52,113 nucleotides of DNA from Candidatus Heimdallarchaeota archaeon (GCA_046761065.1 JBHIFL010000021.1:1-52113), one strand, 5' to 3'. Shown: positions 8,835-15,595, counted from the first letter of the stretch. Notes: a model not told the origin generated them from the sequence alone. A program made the numbers and translations.

Positions 8835-9279
8835 CTAGTCTAGCTTTTCTTTCTCCGATTTCTGTTGTTCAATAAACTCTACAATATACTTTGCATACTG
8901 TTCCAGGTCCCCAACCACCGTTTGTAAGATGTCATATACAATGTCGAGGTCTAAATCTAGATACGCATGCATCAATATGTTTCTGAACCCTGCCATTTTG
9001 GCAATATTTGTGGCAAAAGAGGGTGGGGTGATTCCATGGTCTCTTATATTTATGAAAATGTCTTGGTACCACTCTGGTTTTCTTAAACCCAATCGGGAAA
9101 TCAGGTGAGTACCGATGTCAAGGGCGGCTTCAATACCAGCTGGAGGTATCTTTCAGCCAGACCATGATGTCTGTAATCATTGAAGGATGTTCTGTCCACA
9201 TTCTTGCGGATTTCTTTCATATCTGGCTGTATTCGCCTAATTTTAACAAGATTGTGCAAAGCACTTTAGTATCAATCAT
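8835..9279 (-). pseudogene. hepT: HepT-like (DUF86) RNase toxin, frameshifted
   Basis: ATG 9279 overlaps the MNT stop. MIDTKVL...EYSQI* ends at 9217, AERYLQL lies in a second frame, and IEAALDIGTHLISRLGLRKP...GFRNILMHAY (Rx4H) in a third. Confidence 0.8.
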
Positions 9280-9712
9280 CGTCCTTAGCCCCCCAACTTC
9301 TTATCGCTTCAAATAGGGCATTCTTATATTCGGAATAGATTTTTTCCAAATCAAGATACGTGTCAATTACCCTCGTCTCAAACTTAACACGTTCTTCTTC
9401 ATTCCGACAATAGATGACGACACCTTTGATTATGTTGTAGCTGAGTAGCGGTGGTGCGTGATTCAAAATCACGCGATCGACTTTGTCTGTCGACAAGATA
9501 GCAGAAATTTTATCTATTGATTCTAGTTGTCGCATGAAAAGTTCAGTTCGGCTAGTTAATCGATCAAAGAGGAGTCCAAAGTCGATGTCGCTCAAGTCCG
9601 AGGGTCTGGACAACTGAGAACCGAAAAGATATACGCAAATCAATTGATCGACTGATTTGAAAAGATGATCGAGGTCTTCTGCCCGTTCTTCAACCCTTTG
9701 GAGGAGGTTCAA
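9272..9712 (-). CDS. mntA: Minimal nucleotidyltransferase (MNT) antitoxin
   Basis: YLFGS...SDIDFG motif and VDRVILNHAPPLLSYNI; adjacent to the DUF86 gene. Confidence 0.88.
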   Translation of the reverse strand: MNLLQRVEERAEDLDHLFKSVDQLICVYLFGSQLSRPSDLSDIDFGLLFDRLTSRTELFMRQLESIDKISAILSTDKVDRVILNHAPPLLSYNIIKGVVIYCRNEEERVKFETRVIDTYLDLEKIYSEYKNALFEAIRSWGAKDDD

Positions 9713-9946: not shown

Positions 9947-10252
9947 TTATGCGATAGCAAGGCGGATAAGGACTTCGTTTCGCCCGTCGGAACTCCTTCT
10001 TGAGATACAAATCTCTCTCAGGTCCCTGGTTTAGTTGCCACACTCTTTTTCCCTCTTCGTCGTCTCCACAATCGCTATAACTTCCCCAACTTCAATTTGA
10101 TCTCCGACACTCATGTTGATTTTCAGGGCTCAACATGGCATTGGGGCTACTAATTGGTCCCCTGGAATGGGAGCGTGTGGAGCCATCAAGCCCTCAGGGG
10201 TTGGTACCTCATGAAACGAGACCGAAGGCCTTTTGGGTTCTAACTTGAGGGT
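9947..10252 (-). pseudogene. Decayed biotinyl (BCCP) domain of a biotin carboxyl carrier protein
   Basis: In frame after the 10253 stop: ...LVAPMPC*ALKINMSVGDQIEVGEVIAIVETTKREKECGN*...; APMPG and EAMKM motifs are degraded, with stops at 10130 and 10031. Confidence 0.8.
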
Positions 10253-10513
10253 TTACCATTCTTCTAGCTCGATTTTTATGTCTTCTCCATCTATTGTAAT
10301 CTGAAAAGGTTTATTGAGTGCGATCCCTTCCATAATACTGATTTCATAGGTCAGTTCACCAATTGTGGCTTTAATGGTGTTCTCATCCGGCATGGAAGTG
10401 ATAATCTTCACATTAAAGGCTTCGTCGTTTAGTTTGACGAGGGCTTCGCTGTTTATGACCTCTACTTCTAGAATATAGGGAACCCCCTCAACTTTGATCG
10501 TATACTTCTTCAT
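10253..10513 (-). CDS. N-terminal beta-rich domain of the biotin carrier subunit (truncated BCCP)
   Basis: MKKYTIKVEGVPYILEVE start is typical of BCCP/MmdC-like subunits; intact 86 aa directly after the 5S gene. Confidence 0.7.
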   Translation of the reverse strand: MKKYTIKVEGVPYILEVEVINSEALVKLNDEAFNVKIITSMPDENTIKATIGELTYEISIMEGIALNKPFQITIDGEDIKIELEEW

Positions 10514-10529
10514 GGTGGGTCCCTGAGCC

Positions 10530-12086
10530 TCATTGTAGGTTCAGCATCCCCTGGTGTAACTCCTGTCTCCCAGCCAGCCCCCAGATGTTGAGGAATCTAA
10601 TAGGTGGTCTTGCCACAGGGACGATTAGGGGAGGTACACGTTGTTGGTGAAGCTGTCGAATAACAGCAGCGGAGATGGCGGCAATTTTCGCGAGGTTCAC
10701 CTTCTCGGGCATGGTTCTTTCTTTGAGCCACTCTATAGTCACTTCGGGGAAGAGGGCATAAGAAATCGCATCTTCGTCCTTCTCGGAGTACTGCTTTATC
10801 GCGTTTCGAGCGTCATCGAGCATGGGAGGCAAGAGATCCGCCGGTCTCACGGATATCGGCTCTTCATCTCCAATCGCCTTCTGCTTGATACCTTCATCAA
10901 TCGGCGCTGGCGGTCGCCCATAGTAGCCGCGGATGTATTGGGTGACTTCTTTAGGGATGATCTTCCAGCGGTCTCCGGTCACCACGTTTAAGACGGCCTG
11001 AGCCCCCACCAATTGGCTAGTAGGGGTGACCAAAGGGCACCAACCGAGTTCCTGCCGAACTTTTGGGACCTCTCGGAGGACTTCTGGAAGTTTATCCAGG
11101 GCGTTTTGCTCTTTTAGTTGGGTGATAAGGTTGGAGTACATGCCGCCGGGGATTTGATACAGAAGCACATTGGTATCGACCCCGACAAGGCCGGATTCAA
11201 AGGTGTGGTATTTTTTGCGTACTTCACGGAAGTATTGGCTAATTTCAGAAAGCAAGGTCAAACTAAGGCCAGTATCTCGCTCTGTCCCCTGGAGGGTCGC
11301 CACGAGGGGTTCACAGGGGGGTTGGGAGGTAAGCATAGCTAGAGATGAGATTGCCGTGTCGACCACGTCAACACCAGCTTCCACAGCTTTTAGGTACGCC
11401 ATAGAAGCCATGCCGCTGGTATAGTGACTATGGAGTTGGACCAACGTTTTCTTATCGAGTTCTTCCTTCAGCCGCCGGACCAATTCGTAGGTCGTCGTGG
11501 GATCGATTAAGCCCGCCATATCCTTAATACAGATCGAATCTGCGCCCAACTCCTCCAAAGTTTTCGCATCTTCCACAAATTTGTCGATGTTGTGAACCGG
11601 GCTGGTCGTGTAACAAACGGAGGCTTGGACATGGGCCCCTTCTCGACTGGCAATCTTTATGGCAAATTCCATGTTTCTCGTGTCATTGAGGGCATCAAAA
11701 ATGCGGAATATATCTAAGCCACAACTGATGGCATTCACGATAAACTGTTCAAGCACATCATCTGGGTAATGCTTATACCCAACAATGTTCTGGCCTCTGA
11801 GCAGCATCTGGAGTTGTGTGTGGGGGATATGCTCCCGGATAAGACGGAGGCGCTCCCAAGGGCTTTCCTTGAGGTATCGTAGGGCACTGTCGAAGGTGGC
11901 TCCCCCCCAGACCTCCAGTGAGTGGTAACCAACTTGATCAATTTTCTCGGTAATGGGGAGCATGTCGTCGGTCTTCAACCGGGTAGCGAGTAAGGATTGA
12001 TGGGCGTCACGCAGGGTCGTATCAGTAATTCTCAGTGGTTGCGACGAGAACACCTCCCGAAGTTGGCTATAGGGGGATATTCCCAT
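10530..12086 (-). CDS. Pyruvate/oxaloacetate carboxyltransferase (transcarboxylase 5S / OadA / PycB family), no biotinyl domain
   Basis: [54 protein letters not shown] and PLVTPTSQ motifs. Start uncertain (ATG 12086 or GTG 12053). Confidence 0.92.
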
Positions 12087-13620
12087 GTTTTCGGGGTGGG
12101 CGTTGTTCGCGTTTGGTGGCAACGGTTTCTAACGCTTGGATTAAAAGCGGTCTCGTGTCTTTGGGTTCGATAACCGCATCGATAAACCCGATCTCTGCCG
12201 CCTTCCAAGGGTTCGCAAACTTTTCGATATACTCTTGGATTTTAACTTCCCGATACGCGTCGGGATCTTTAGCTTTTTGAATTTCGCGCCGAAAGATGAT
12301 GTTAGCTGCCCCGGAAGGCCCCATGACCGCACATTCGGCGGTTGGCCATGCGTAAACAATATCTGCCCCACTATGGCGGCTTGCCATAACATCGTACGCT
12401 CCGCCATAGGCCTTTCGTGTAATTAACGTGATTTTCGGGACGGTGGCTTCACAGAATGCGTAAAGCAGCTTCGCACCATGGCGGATGATGCCACCGTGCT
12501 CTTGGGTTGTGCCTGGTAGGAACCCCGGGACGTCCATAAAGGTAATCAGTGGAATGTTGAAGGCGTCGCAGAACCGCACGAATCGAGCTGCTTTATCCGA
12601 CGAGTTGATGTCGAGGGTCCCTGCAAGAAAGGCCGGCTGATTGGCAACGATTCCTACAGAGCGTCCATTGAGCCGAGCAAAGCCCACGATAATGTTTCGG
12701 GCATAGTGCTCATGGACCTCAAAAAAATCGCCATTATCGACGACCTTCCGGATGACCATTTTCATATCGTAGGCTTTCGAACTTTCATCTGGGATGATTG
12801 CATTTAAGGAATCGTCCGTCCTATTTGGGTCATCTGTGGGTTCAACAAAGGGAGGATCTTCCAGGTTATTATTAGGAATAAAACTCAAGAGCTTTCGAAT
12901 CATGTCGAAGCAGGCATCCTCGTTTTTCGCAGCAAAATGGGAAACTCCTGAGGTCTGATTGTGGACCATTGCTCCTCCAAGGGTTTCAAAGGTGACTTCT
13001 TCTCCTGTAACGGTTTTAATGACCTCTGGTCCCGTGATAAACATGTAACTTGTGCCTTCTGTCATAAAGATAAAATCGGTCATGGCCGGAGAATAAACGG
13101 CACCACCTGCATTCGGACCAAGAATCGCCGAGATCTGAGGTATCACGCCGCTAGAGATTACATTCCTGAAAAAGATCTCCCCATACGCTCCTAATGCGAC
13201 TACGCCTTCTTGGATACGGGCTCCTCCGGAGTCATTGAGGCCAATAATTGGGGCGCCAGCTTTAAGGGCTGCATCACAGATCTTGACGATCTTCTTGCCC
13301 CATTGCTCACCACAGGTCCCACCAAAGACGGTAAAGTCTTGGGAAAAGACATAAATAGGCCTTCCATCAATTGTGCCGAATCCAGTAACCACACCATCTC
13401 CAAGGATTCGCCGCTCGAACATTCCAAAGTCATGCACTTGATGCATTGCGAATTTGTCGGTTTCCACAAAAGATCCAGGATCCAACAATTTCTCAATGCG
13501 TTCTCTGGCGGTGTACTTGCCCCGTTTATGTTGTCTTTCAATCCGCTCTTTCCCTCCGCCCAATTCGGCGTGTTCATTTTTCTTCCGGAATTCTTCAAGT
13601 TTTTTCTGCGTGCTCACCAT
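12067..13620 (-). CDS. pccB: Acyl-CoA carboxyltransferase beta (PccB / MmdA / transcarboxylase 12S)
   Basis: [43 protein letters not shown] and C-terminal KHGNIPL. Confidence 0.95.
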
Positions 13621-13759
13621 TTAGAAACCTCATTTCGCTTTACTTAATATATTCATGCCTTGAGAAGCGTGTTTTAACCTGAGGAGAAGCTCACAATATT
13701 CCCAACGAGGTTCAAATTATTCACAGCTTATGGAAACACTCTGAAATTCGAGGAACCGG

Positions 13760-14566
13760 CTAAATTCTTTTCGAATCGATAACTTCGCCAGATATAATTC
13801 GCTGTACCGAATTATCAGCAAGCTTCAGGATCAAGCCACCATCCGGATCTATCCCTTGAGCGATGCCCTCAAATGTGTCGTGTGTCGTTGTAATGCGAAT
13901 CCACCGCCCCGGTGTGACAAGTAACGTGTTATAGGTATTGAGAAGTGGAAAGAGGTCATTCTTTTGGAATTCTTCATATAAACGTTCAAATTCTTCCAAG
14001 AAATTCTGAATAAACGCTGTCAGAGAGATTTCAGTTTTCAGCTCCTCCTTAATGGAAGTTCCGGTTGCTCGAACCTCCTTAGGTGATGCCTTCAGATCTA
14101 CATTAGCGTTGATCCCTAAGCCGACTATTAGGTATTCAAGACGGCCGCCTTTTGTACCGCCTTCGGTAAGCACCCCGCAGATTTTCTTGTCGTTAACCAA
14201 GACATCATTTGGCCATTTTACTCCGGCATCCAACTGATATTTGATTTGGAGGAAATTAGCCATTGCAATTGCGCTGACTAACGCTATCTTTGGAGCTTGA
14301 TGGGGAGCAATTGGGGGTTTTAAAATGATTGAAATATAAACGCCTCCCGGTGGCGAGAACCATTTACGGGGCTGACCACCATGAAACCGTCCCCGCCCAT
14401 GAATTTGTTCTTTCGCAATAATTACGACACCTTCATTCGCGCCAGCTTCTACAAGTTCTTTTGCTTTATCATTTGTAGAGTCGATTCTTTGATAACAGAT
14501 TACCTCATGACCAATAACTTTTGTTCTCAGCCCGTTTTTAATTTCAAGAGCCCATGCGGGTTCCAT
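13760..14566 (-). CDS. birA: Biotin--protein ligase (class I, no HTH)
   Basis: DSTND, QxHGRGR, KWPNDVLVNDKKICGVL and GLGINAN motifs. Confidence 0.95.
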   Translation of the reverse strand: MEPAWALEIKNGLRTKVIGHEVICYQRIDSTNDKAKELVEAGANEGVVIIAKEQIHGRGRFHGGQPRKWFSPPGGVYISIILKPPIAPHQAPKIALVSAIAMANFLQIKYQLDAGVKWPNDVLVNDKKICGVLTEGGTKGGRLEYLIVGLGINANVDLKASPKEVRATGTSIKEELKTEISLTAFIQNFLEEFERLYEEFQKNDLFPLLNTYNTLLVTPGRWIRITTTHDTFEGIAQGIDPDGGLILKLADNSVQRIISGEVIDSKRI

Positions 14567-14651
14567 TGTGCGCCCCAGCTTTTGCCCTATTCTGGGATTA
14601 GATGCGGTTGTAGCATACTTACCCTATCTCAGGCAGTAAATTGCATAGAAG

Positions 14652-15065
14652 TTAGTCTGTGGCCTCCATGAACTCGAAGAGGACTCCTCTGGTACTTCTT
14701 GGATGTACAAATGCAATTTTAGTCCGATGTGCTCCAATTCTGGGTTTTTCATCTATTAGGGTTACTCCTTGCTCTTTAGCCCGTTGTAGAGCGGTCTTTA
14801 TATTGTCAACTTCTAATGCAATGTGATGGATACCTTCTCCACGGCGTTCGATATGTTTGGCAATAGGAGAATCTGGTGTGGTCCCTTCAAGCAATTCGAT
14901 ATGTGTCTCCCCTATGGGGAGAAACGCAATTTTCACGCGTTGCTCTTCAACTCTCGAAATGTCCTCGCATTGGAGTCCTAATGCTTCAGAATAAAGCTTT
15001 GCTACCTCTTCAGCATCTTTAACAGCAATTCCAATATGAGCTATCTTCTTTATCATACCAATCAA
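14652..15065 (-). CDS. mce: Methylmalonyl-CoA epimerase (VOC family)
   Basis: HIGIAV, IELLE, RGEGIHHIALEV and IAFVHPRSTRGVLFE motifs. Confidence 0.93.
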   Translation of the reverse strand: MIGMIKKIAHIGIAVKDAEEVAKLYSEALGLQCEDISRVEEQRVKIAFLPIGETHIELLEGTTPDSPIAKHIERRGEGIHHIALEVDNIKTALQRAKEQGVTLIDEKPRIGAHRTKIAFVHPRSTRGVLFEFMEATD

Positions 15066-15346: not shown

Positions 15347-15595
15347 TCATACTAAGGGAGCGGTTGCGTGAATCAGAGTGTGGATGCCCCGTAAAATCGT
15401 CCGACAGCTGTCACACACATAGTAGACTTCTTCAGCGGTTTCCTCGGAAATCCGCATGATCTTTATTTTTCTAGTAGACTCTGATATTACGGTGTCTCCT
15501 TCCATTTCAACACTTGGGACTTCTGCCCCCTCTTGCCTGTGGCACAACCAGCATTGCTTAGGATCTCCTACGAATTGAAAAAGTTCTTTACTCAT
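15347..15595 (-). CDS. Small zinc-finger-like hypothetical protein
   Basis: CWLC...CDSC cysteine pairs; AGGTGG upstream of ATG. Confidence 0.7.
   Translation of the reverse strand: MSKELFQFVGDPKQCWLCHRQEGAEVPSVEMEGDTVISESTRKIKIMRISEETAEEVYYVCDSCRTILRGIHTLIHATAPLV

Follow-up and report, generated by a model that had tools for sequence, protein, structure and literature searches.

A methylmalonyl-CoA-pathway carboxyltransferase cluster with a decayed biotin carrier gene in a Heimdallarchaeota genome

Introduction

Do two carboxyltransferase genes next to a biotin carrier gene suffice to identify a transcarboxylase? This question is raised by a stretch of 52,113 nucleotides from a Candidatus Heimdallarchaeota archaeon (GCA_046761065.1, JBHIFL010000021.1:1-52113), which was analysed as a whole and is referred to here as the window. 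Between positions 15065 and 9947 it carries, all on the minus strand, genes for a methylmalonyl-CoA epimerase (mce), a biotin protein ligase (birA), a 12S-type acyl-CoA carboxyltransferase and a 5S-type pyruvate/oxaloacetate carboxyltransferase, followed by what had been taken for the biotin carboxyl carrier protein (BCCP) gene. A preliminary description had assigned this run to the methylmalonyl-CoA:pyruvate transcarboxylase (EC 2.1.3.1), arguing that two carboxyltransferases plus a carrier define this enzyme and inferring carboxyl transfer independent of ATP and linked to propionate production or oxidation; it saw neither a biotin carboxylase nor OadB, the beta subunit of sodium-pumping decarboxylases, in the window.

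For other Asgard archaea, such a reading is already published. The parts of Imachi et al. (2020; PMC7015854) that concern these genes read them as methylmalonyl-CoA transcarboxylase-associated and interpret the biotin ligase and BCCP conserved across Asgard phyla as propionate fermentation, and a carboxyltransferase is listed in the corresponding part of the Hermodarchaeota paper (PMC8163825). Here we find that the cluster in this genome is not a self-contained transcarboxylase, since its carrier gene is broken and both an ATP-using carboxylase and a sodium-pump module are encoded elsewhere in the same genome.

Results

The decisive observation is that the carrier gene is a pseudogene. Its 567-nt frame is interrupted by TAA (10255-10253), TGA (10132-10130) and TAA (10033-10031) ahead of the original stop TAA (9949-9947). 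Read through these stops, the translation (P0001) can be aligned end to end with the carriers of close relatives (P0002-P0004), and a search with it retrieved three intact 189-aa proteins with 58-64% identity. In the alignment, the stops stand at E87, R128 and K162 of the orthologues, one codon is deleted, PMPG is changed to PMPC and (S/A)MKM to TTKR. The biotinyl motif accordingly reads E-T-T-K-R-E in the window and E-(A/S)-M-K-M-E in the intact orthologues, and the Pfam model Biotin_lipoyl is matched with only 18.8-20 bits (cut-off 22.1) over profile positions 2-42. The frame is base-for-base the same in the independent per-run Logan assemblies of SRR29324585 and SRR29324587 and is therefore not an artefact of the metagenome-assembled genome (MAG); together with damage by substitution, this led us to reject an assembly or sequencing error. 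Stop-codon recoding was rejected as well, because the interruptions are of two kinds, TAA and TGA, and the 5S gene, 16 nt upstream, itself ends in TGA; furthermore, the MKM motif and one codon are lost, and the orthologues carry E, R and K at the stop sites. All three stops fall after codon 86, which would happen by chance with a probability of about 0.16, (103/189)^3, so that the retention of the N-terminal 86-aa open reading frame (ORF) is suggestive only.

The other genes of the run show no such damage. Three loci with intact carriers (L169, L170 and L171), which stem from ENA metagenomes and from a MAG that bears the label Candidatus Heimdallarchaeota, share the gene order of the window from a polyprenyl synthase and IMPDH through orf82, mce, birA, 12S, 5S and the carrier to a luciferase-like gene; where the window has its pseudogene, they have an undamaged carrier of 189 aa. 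Identity to these relatives amounts to 83-95% for the neighbouring genes (12S 95%, mce 89% to the 134-aa orthologues in L169 and L171) and to 57-63% for the carrier, and the 86-aa ORF is 59-70% identical to residues 1-86 of the 189-aa orthologues. Against the relatives, dN/dS is 0.04 (12S), 0.08-0.10 (5S), 0.10 (mce) and 0.15 (birA); each value is a mean over the whole branch and thus also compatible with a very recent relaxation. For the biotinyl part, dN/dS amounts to 0.29-0.41 between the window and its relatives and to 0.11 between two intact relatives; by our rough estimate from these figures, the domain evolved neutrally over about a quarter of the divergence. In mce, birA, 12S and 5S, some 1,300 codons in all, there is neither a stop nor a frameshift; the 3' part of the carrier gene (about 100 codons) has three stops and one indel. 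These values indicate that 12S and 5S are under strong purifying selection, and the clean state of the carboxyltransferases over the span of carrier relaxation argues that they are still in use. With their own carrier dead, they would therefore be served by a carrier encoded elsewhere.

Candidates for this role exist in the same MAG (4.42 Mb, 91.5% complete, 8.2% contaminated). Contig C10 encodes a stand-alone, MmdC-like short BCCP (163-aa ORF, about 150-aa protein), and contig C11 an AccC biotin carboxylase (NF006406, 639 bits) with a 215-aa BCCP after it; this pair has enoyl-CoA hydratase and acyl-CoA genes as neighbours and is unlinked to the carboxyltransferases of the cluster. On contig C12, OadB (PF03977 470 bits, TIGR01109 418 bits) and OadG (PF04277 35.4 bits) are both intact, so that the beta and gamma/delta anchor of a sodium-translocating decarboxylase is present in the genome, but outside the operon. 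Further carboxyltransferases are encoded on C66 (MmdA-like, 777 bits, 54.5% identical to 12S) and C23 (divergent, 33%). The rest of the methylmalonyl-CoA pathway is represented by two mutases, MeaB, succinyl-CoA synthetase, FrdA/SdhA-like proteins and a CoA-transferase. The genome search proposed in the preliminary description thus recovered the expected mutase, but also AccC and OadB; the absence of a biotin carboxylase and of OadB applies to the window and to the 30 other cluster-bearing Asgard genomes described below, not to this genome. As a separate observation, two FrdA/SdhA-like (Succ_DH_flav_C) copies in this genome are likewise nonsense-mutated (C105:3218-3553 and C117:7008-7313), one with a single TAA and the other with two TAG and two TAA.

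Contamination is an unlikely source of OadB, AccC or the C10 BCCP. The tetranucleotide composition of the contigs in question is typical of the bin, and OadB and the C10 BCCP have copies of 76-90% identity in metagenomes and Hod/Heimdall-labelled MAGs. The neighbours of the OadG-OadB pair are of archaeal type, and ERZ23499022, the metagenome that holds the intact operon L170, also contains a syntenic copy with 89% identity; the best OadB matches in a scan of species-representative genomes are bacterial, with only about 50% identity. A C10-type BCCP coexists with an intact operon carrier in one assembly (GCA_046758425.1), and the redundancy therefore predates the carrier loss. Taken together, the extra partners appear to belong to the lineage and to be older than the loss of the carrier.

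To what extent the cluster stands for transcarboxylation can be judged from its relatives. In other Asgard families (Thor-type, Hermod-type and f13) the order is mce-birA-12S-(inserts)-5S-BCCP, methylmalonyl-CoA mutase subunits often adjoin, and the carriers, which are intact, measure 175-216 aa. Among named contigs, those of Hermod- and Thorarchaeota come closest, followed by Bathyarchaeia and Chloroflexota. By gene order and sequence, the locus is thus the Asgard methylmalonyl-CoA-pathway carboxyltransferase cluster mce-birA-12S-5S-carrier, apparently inherited vertically in the Heimdall/Hod-group lineage. We surveyed 100 other Asgard genomes with a completeness of at least 80% and found PYC_OADA, the domain of the 5S subunit, only in the families f6 (15/15), f12 (12/14) and f13 (3/3), that is in 30 of the 100 genomes. 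OAD_beta was found in none of the 100, and Biotin_carb_C in 25, yet in 0/32 genomes of these three families. Two carboxyltransferases sharing one carrier are thereby the only partner set found in those families, which supports transcarboxylation: where neither an ATP module nor a pump module is found, biotin loaded by one carboxyltransferase would be unloaded by the other. Consequently, the claim of ATP-independent transfer is supported by descent, and for the 30 other cluster-bearing genomes without biotin carboxylase or OadB, but not as it had been stated for this genome.

We regard ATP-independent transcarboxylation as the ancestral and most likely mode of the cluster, and consider it on balance probable that the 12S/5S pair of this genome still performs this chemistry in the methylmalonyl-CoA pathway with a carrier encoded elsewhere. 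In such a scheme, 12S would transfer CO2 from (S)-methylmalonyl-CoA onto carrier-bound biotin and 5S would pass it on to pyruvate, yielding oxaloacetate, in a reversible reaction. BirA would biotinylate the carrier, and the epimerase would connect the enzyme to methylmalonyl-CoA mutase. The normal carrier would consist of three parts, a barrel docking to the enzyme, a flexible linker and the biotinyl domain, and nonsense mutations would have reduced the carrier of this genome to its barrel. As substitutes, the short BCCP on C10 or the long BCCP beside AccC on C11 come into consideration. The data show the gene identities, the pseudogene, the orthology, the purifying selection, the partner inventory of the whole genome and the BT-like fold described below; the reaction, the docking role of the barrel and the identity of the substitute carrier are what we infer from these comparisons.

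Several points weigh against this interpretation. Besides the loss of the intact dedicated carrier that characterizes EC 2.1.3.1 and the averaging of dN/dS mentioned above, OadB is confined to the window genome among the 101 sampled, as is the combination of 5S with a biotin carboxylase; with OadG and OadB as well as AccC and BCCP at hand, decarboxylase or carboxylase complexes are possible. Two orthologous operons in Bathyarchaeia have the order accC-BCCP-mce-MFS-birA-12S-5S-BCCP, which speaks against deducing a transcarboxylase from the gene set. The scores of 5S point in the same direction: OadA (2NX9, 518 bits) and PycB (5KS8, 515 bits) exceed the transcarboxylase 5S subunit (1RQB, 442 bits), and the NCBIfam 5S equivalog NF008984 is matched below its cut-off (548 against 827); only a generic PycB domain model is passed.

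Similarity scores alone failed to tell a transcarboxylase from OadA, PycB, PccB or MmdA, as PDB and NCBIfam scores overlap and three genomic contexts occur: homologues of 5S with 55-67% identity are found in 12S-5S-BCCP clusters, in Bacillota carboxyltransferase-BCCP-OadB-5S clusters and beside biotin carboxylases. The 5S motifs RDAHQS, KDMAG and HxH align with their counterparts in 2NX9, 5KS8 and 1RQB, and the protein lacks a fused biotinyl domain (no Biotin_lipoyl match); with its conserved active-site motifs, it can be assigned to the 5S type. The 12S protein matches TIGR01117 (mmdA subfamily) with 852 bits, below the cut-off of 998.8, and was assigned to the transcarboxylase 12S-type acyl-CoA carboxyltransferases although 1VRG (714 bits) and PccB (681 bits) outscore the transcarboxylase 12S subunit 1ON3 (630 bits). 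A phylogeny of both carboxyltransferases had been suggested as a check. In a FastTree analysis of 89 5S sequences, built without characterised reference enzymes, the window sequence clusters with Hermod-type sequences and those of its close relatives, inside a clade of mostly 12S-adjacent loci whose support is weak (86), and the OadB-adjacent Bacillota form a separate clade (support 100); 12S was compared by pairwise identity.

Among the alternatives, a sodium-pumping decarboxylase has to be considered first, although we think it unlikely. In this case, 12S and/or 5S would act as alpha subunits of a methylmalonyl-CoA or oxaloacetate decarboxylase together with OadG and OadB of C12 and the BCCP of C10, and the carrier loss would mark a shift away from transcarboxylation. 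The intact, bin-typical pump genes with archaeal-type neighbours and their syntenic copy in the metagenome of L170 are in line with this idea, as are a Promethearchaeota MAG with a gamma-BCCP-beta operon that includes a short BCCP, and the Bacillota clusters, which unite a 61-63% identical carboxyltransferase, BCCP, OadB and a 5S homologue. However, no carboxyltransferase gene of this genome is linked to beta/gamma (none within about 5 kb on each side on C12). Nor was one found beside OadG-OadB over 8 kb upstream in the syntenic relative, whose contig stops shortly downstream of OadB, or over 8 kb to either side in the Promethearchaeota locus. The MmdA-like carboxyltransferase of C66 could be the alpha subunit instead, and 5S falls into the clade that bears a characteristic C-terminal tail (see below) rather than into the OadB-linked one. 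Moreover, close relatives possess the pump genes together with an intact operon carrier, and therefore the two systems coexist and do not replace each other. Regarding the Promethearchaeota operon itself (L174:7164-9710, GCA_048938655.1; OadG, a 134-aa BCCP and OadB), its beta subunit has 569 aa and exceeds by about 170 aa the 386-412 aa forms known from bacteria and from the lineage of the window.

A second alternative, which we judge improbable, assumes ATP-dependent carboxylases: AccC and the long BCCP of C11 would carboxylate biotin, with 12S acting as propionyl-CoA carboxylase and 5S as a PycB-like pyruvate carboxylase. It draws on the AccC-BCCP pair itself, as the N-terminus of this BCCP is partly BT-like (partial match to the profile of the BT-like domain described below, hhalign probability 76%), on the two Bathyarchaeia operons with accC-BCCP and on some close 5S homologues beside a biotin carboxylase. 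On the other hand, the C11 pair may serve the carboxyltransferase of C23 or C66, and the 30 other sampled Asgard genomes with the cluster have no detectable biotin carboxylase. An orthologous operon with a biotin carboxylase or OadB had been named as a finding that would speak against the transcarboxylase; such operons exist for the part of the family found in Bathyarchaeia, but were not found in the sampled Thor/Hermod-type Asgard genomes. Within the two Bathyarchaeia operons (L066:964-3014 and L081:807-2878), accC and a first BCCP of 193-194 aa are accompanied by a second BCCP after 5S, which amounts to two carriers and an ATP module in one cluster.

Finally, a decaying cluster, in which the carrier loss inactivated the enzyme and the other genes are not yet visibly degraded, would fit the three stops, the indel, the lost MKM and the other broken genes of the genome (C105, C117), but is very improbable given that about 1,300 codons stayed clean, with dN/dS of 0.04-0.15, over a divergence of which about a quarter passed under a relaxed biotinyl domain.

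If transcarboxylation with a borrowed carrier is the favoured reading, the part of the carrier that survives deserves attention. In the model of an intact relative (P0003), an all-beta N-terminal domain (residues 1-86, pLDDT about 85) is followed by a disordered linker (89-117) and a confidently predicted biotinyl domain. The 86-aa ORF modelled alone with AlphaFold (pLDDT 86.5) gives a beta-barrel of eight strands. A structure search with this model returned BT domains of propionyl-CoA carboxylase (PCC), MCC or ACC in the top 28 PDB rows without exception. The best barrel matches were human PCC alpha 558-641 (Z 9.6, rmsd 1.8 A, 84 aligned residues) and M. extorquens PCC 498-580 (Z 9.7), with an rmsd of 1.8-2.5 A over 82-84 residues at Z 9.6-9.7; yeast ACC 618-697 followed with Z 7.6-7.8, and unrelated barrels reached at most Z 5.2. 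The 86-aa ORF is thus predicted to fold as a BT-domain-like barrel. In the P0003 model the eight-stranded barrel also has the position typical of a BT domain, directly upstream of the BCCP domain. The central helix and the hook contacting the carboxyltransferase are missing, as the models consist of strands throughout and the matches begin at the barrel (PCC alpha 558).

The carboxyltransferase side offers a possible counterpart. The C-terminal tail of 5S (about 10530-10730) carries a W-x-x-AGR motif; searches of Pfam and of PDB sequences gave no match for the tail, and none is detectable in 1RQB. A W-x-x-(A)GR tail is present on 5S in 20 of 88 loci, and an adjacent long carrier (at least 165 aa) in all 20 of these; the tail occurs in 0/30 loci with a short BCCP and 0/9 with a fused BCCP. 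The loci are related, and the counts therefore overstate independence. Chloroflexota and Acidobacteriota have a variant tail (PWK.A.R) and carriers of 156-203 aa. The BT barrel of PCC mediates contact with the carboxyltransferase subunit. By analogy with the helical AccE subunit, proposed to replace the BT helix in carboxylases that lack it (Lombard and Moreira, 2011), the 5S tail might supply a helix or hook in trans. This leads to a speculative model, which we hold to be rather doubtful at present: in the Asgard/Bathyarchaeia-type enzyme the BT domain would be split, with a helix-less barrel contributed by the carrier, the helix or hook by the 5S tail (an Ala-rich segment plus W-x-x-AGR), and the barrel acting as a clamp between 5S and the 12S core. 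The window genome would retain this barrel, after loss of the biotinyl domain, as a stand-alone 86-aa assembly subunit, and biotin would come from a different BCCP.

The features of the locus are compiled in Table 1. Four of the five genes that had been described are intact and co-oriented; the biotin carrier, with three stops and the MKM motif lost, is not. The epimerase passes the equivalog TIGR03081 (161.6 bits, cut-off 114.95; Glyoxalase_4 95 bits), and the position of birA is kept in Asgard and Bathyarchaeia operons. Gaps of 85 nt (mce-birA) and 139 nt (birA-12S), a 20-nt overlap of 12S and 5S and 16 nt between 5S and the next ORF fit an operon. Biotin carboxylase and OadB are absent from all 52,113 nt of the window. 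The upstream orf82 is found at the same position, with 87% identity, in L169, L170 and L171 and has no match in a Pfam search; a similar ORF is not evident at that position in Thor/Hermod-type loci, for which no specific search was made.

Table 1. Features of the carboxyltransferase cluster and of the ORF upstream of it (positions in the window)
Feature	Position	Strand	Remarks
orf82	15347..15595	-	82 aa, two CxxC pairs; same orientation as mce, 281 nt upstream; candidate operon member
mce, methylmalonyl-CoA epimerase	15056..14652	-	134 aa from ATG 15056; mechanical ORF begins at TTG 15065
birA, biotin protein ligase	14566..13760	-	268 aa; BPL_LplA_LipB 69 bits, BPL_C 46 bits
12S-type acyl-CoA (propionyl/methylmalonyl-CoA) carboxyltransferase	13620..12067	-	517 aa; Carboxyl_trans 666 bits
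5S-type pyruvate/oxaloacetate carboxyltransferase	12086..10530	-	518 aa; HMGL-like and PYC_OADA
Carrier gene remnant	10513..9947	-	single frame, 567 nt, three in-frame stops
Surviving N-terminal carrier ORF	10253..10513	-	86 codons, ends at TAA 10255-10253
Decayed linker and biotinyl domain	9947..10252	-	in frame with the 86-aa ORF

Some further observations concern the surroundings of the cluster. The GC content is 0.48-0.50 at 10001-14000, 0.41-0.42 in the immediate flanks and 0.37-0.42 in most of the window beyond 18 kb, with further GC-rich blocks at 4-8 kb and at 42-50 kb. Next to the dead carrier on its downstream side (8835-9712, minus strand) lie the gene of a Polbeta/MNT-type nucleotidyltransferase of 146 aa (9272-9712) and an ORF of HepT-like type (8835-9092). 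The toxin partner looks truncated, as the HepT-like ORF has 85 aa in the window and 146 aa in L171; the pair is not at this site in L169 and L170. A comparison of L169 with L171 gives 96-98% identity in polyprenyl synthase, IMPDH, mce, birA and 12S, but 5S reaches only 91%, the carrier 74% and the luciferase-like gene 81%, which suggests recombination or a faster turnover at the 3' end of the cluster. In L036 (G036:C61, about 10344-12704), the complete 5S gene is preceded by a 95-aa duplicate of its N-terminal part, near which stops occur, and a 598-aa ORF stands between the two; this looks like an insertion that displaced and duplicated the start of the 5S gene.

Discussion

The published view of propionate fermentation as an ancestral trait of Asgard archaea is built on the transcarboxylase reading, which our survey supports in 30/30 other genomes with the cluster. 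The genome studied here, from a Heimdall/Hod-group lineage, is a counter-example, in which the same carboxyltransferases are found alongside the two alternative partner sets and their own carrier is lost. All three modes of biotin enzymes are thus encoded in one genome, which is an unusual background. The premise of the preliminary description, that two carboxyltransferases and a carrier define a transcarboxylase, therefore does not hold on sequence alone in view of the dead carrier, the alternative partners (AccC, OadB and the C10 BCCP), the accC operons of Bathyarchaeia and the OadB clusters of Bacillota, and pathway calls from the mere presence of 12S, 5S and BCCP can mislead. New in this analysis are the BT-like fold of the 86-aa ORF and the co-occurrence of long carriers with the 5S tail. 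Together, these two elements provide a testable model of how a transcarboxylase without a 1.3S-type anchor holds together, and the carrier domain would be a structural link between transcarboxylases and PCC. If the split BT domain and the supply of biotin by a different BCCP were confirmed, one carboxyltransferase pair could switch between transcarboxylase, sodium-pump and ATP-dependent modes.

In comparison with known systems, the Asgard genes discussed by Imachi et al. (2020; PMC7015854) and in PMC8163825 belong to the same gene family and context, with orthology supported by synteny and the 5S tree. The parts of these papers that concern the genes make no mention of a dead carrier, a BT-like domain, a 5S tail or the coexistence of OadB/OadG and AccC in a Heimdall/Hod-group genome, and a literature search for oxaloacetate decarboxylase or methylmalonyl-CoA in Heimdall/Hod groups returned nothing.

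The transcarboxylase of Propionibacterium freudenreichii (EC 2.1.3.1; 12S, 5S and 1.3S; 1ON3, 1RQB) shares with the cluster the 12S and 5S pair, a separate carrier gene directly after 5S, an operon without biotin carboxylase or beta subunit, the 5S motifs and the link to the epimerase and, in relatives of the window, to the mutase. Its 1.3S subunit has 123 aa with only a short N-terminal peptide. In contrast, the carrier is broken here, the carriers of relatives comprise 175-216 aa with a BT-like barrel, and the 5S tail is unmatched in 1RQB. Sodium-translocating decarboxylases (OadABG, MmdABCD; 2NX9) resemble the system in that 5S is nearest to the OadA carboxyltransferase domain, 12S matches the mmdA model and the genome has beta, gamma and an MmdC-like BCCP; however, the alpha-type genes are unlinked to beta/gamma, and the association and biotinyl domains that OadA carries as fusions are missing from 5S. 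The BT domain of PCC, MCC and ACC (PDB 7YBU, 3N6R, 6YBP, 5CSA) likewise places an eight-stranded barrel just before the linker and biotinyl domain, whereas the carrier of the Asgard cluster has no upstream biotin carboxylase domain, and its predicted barrel is without central helix or hook and only 8-19% identical.

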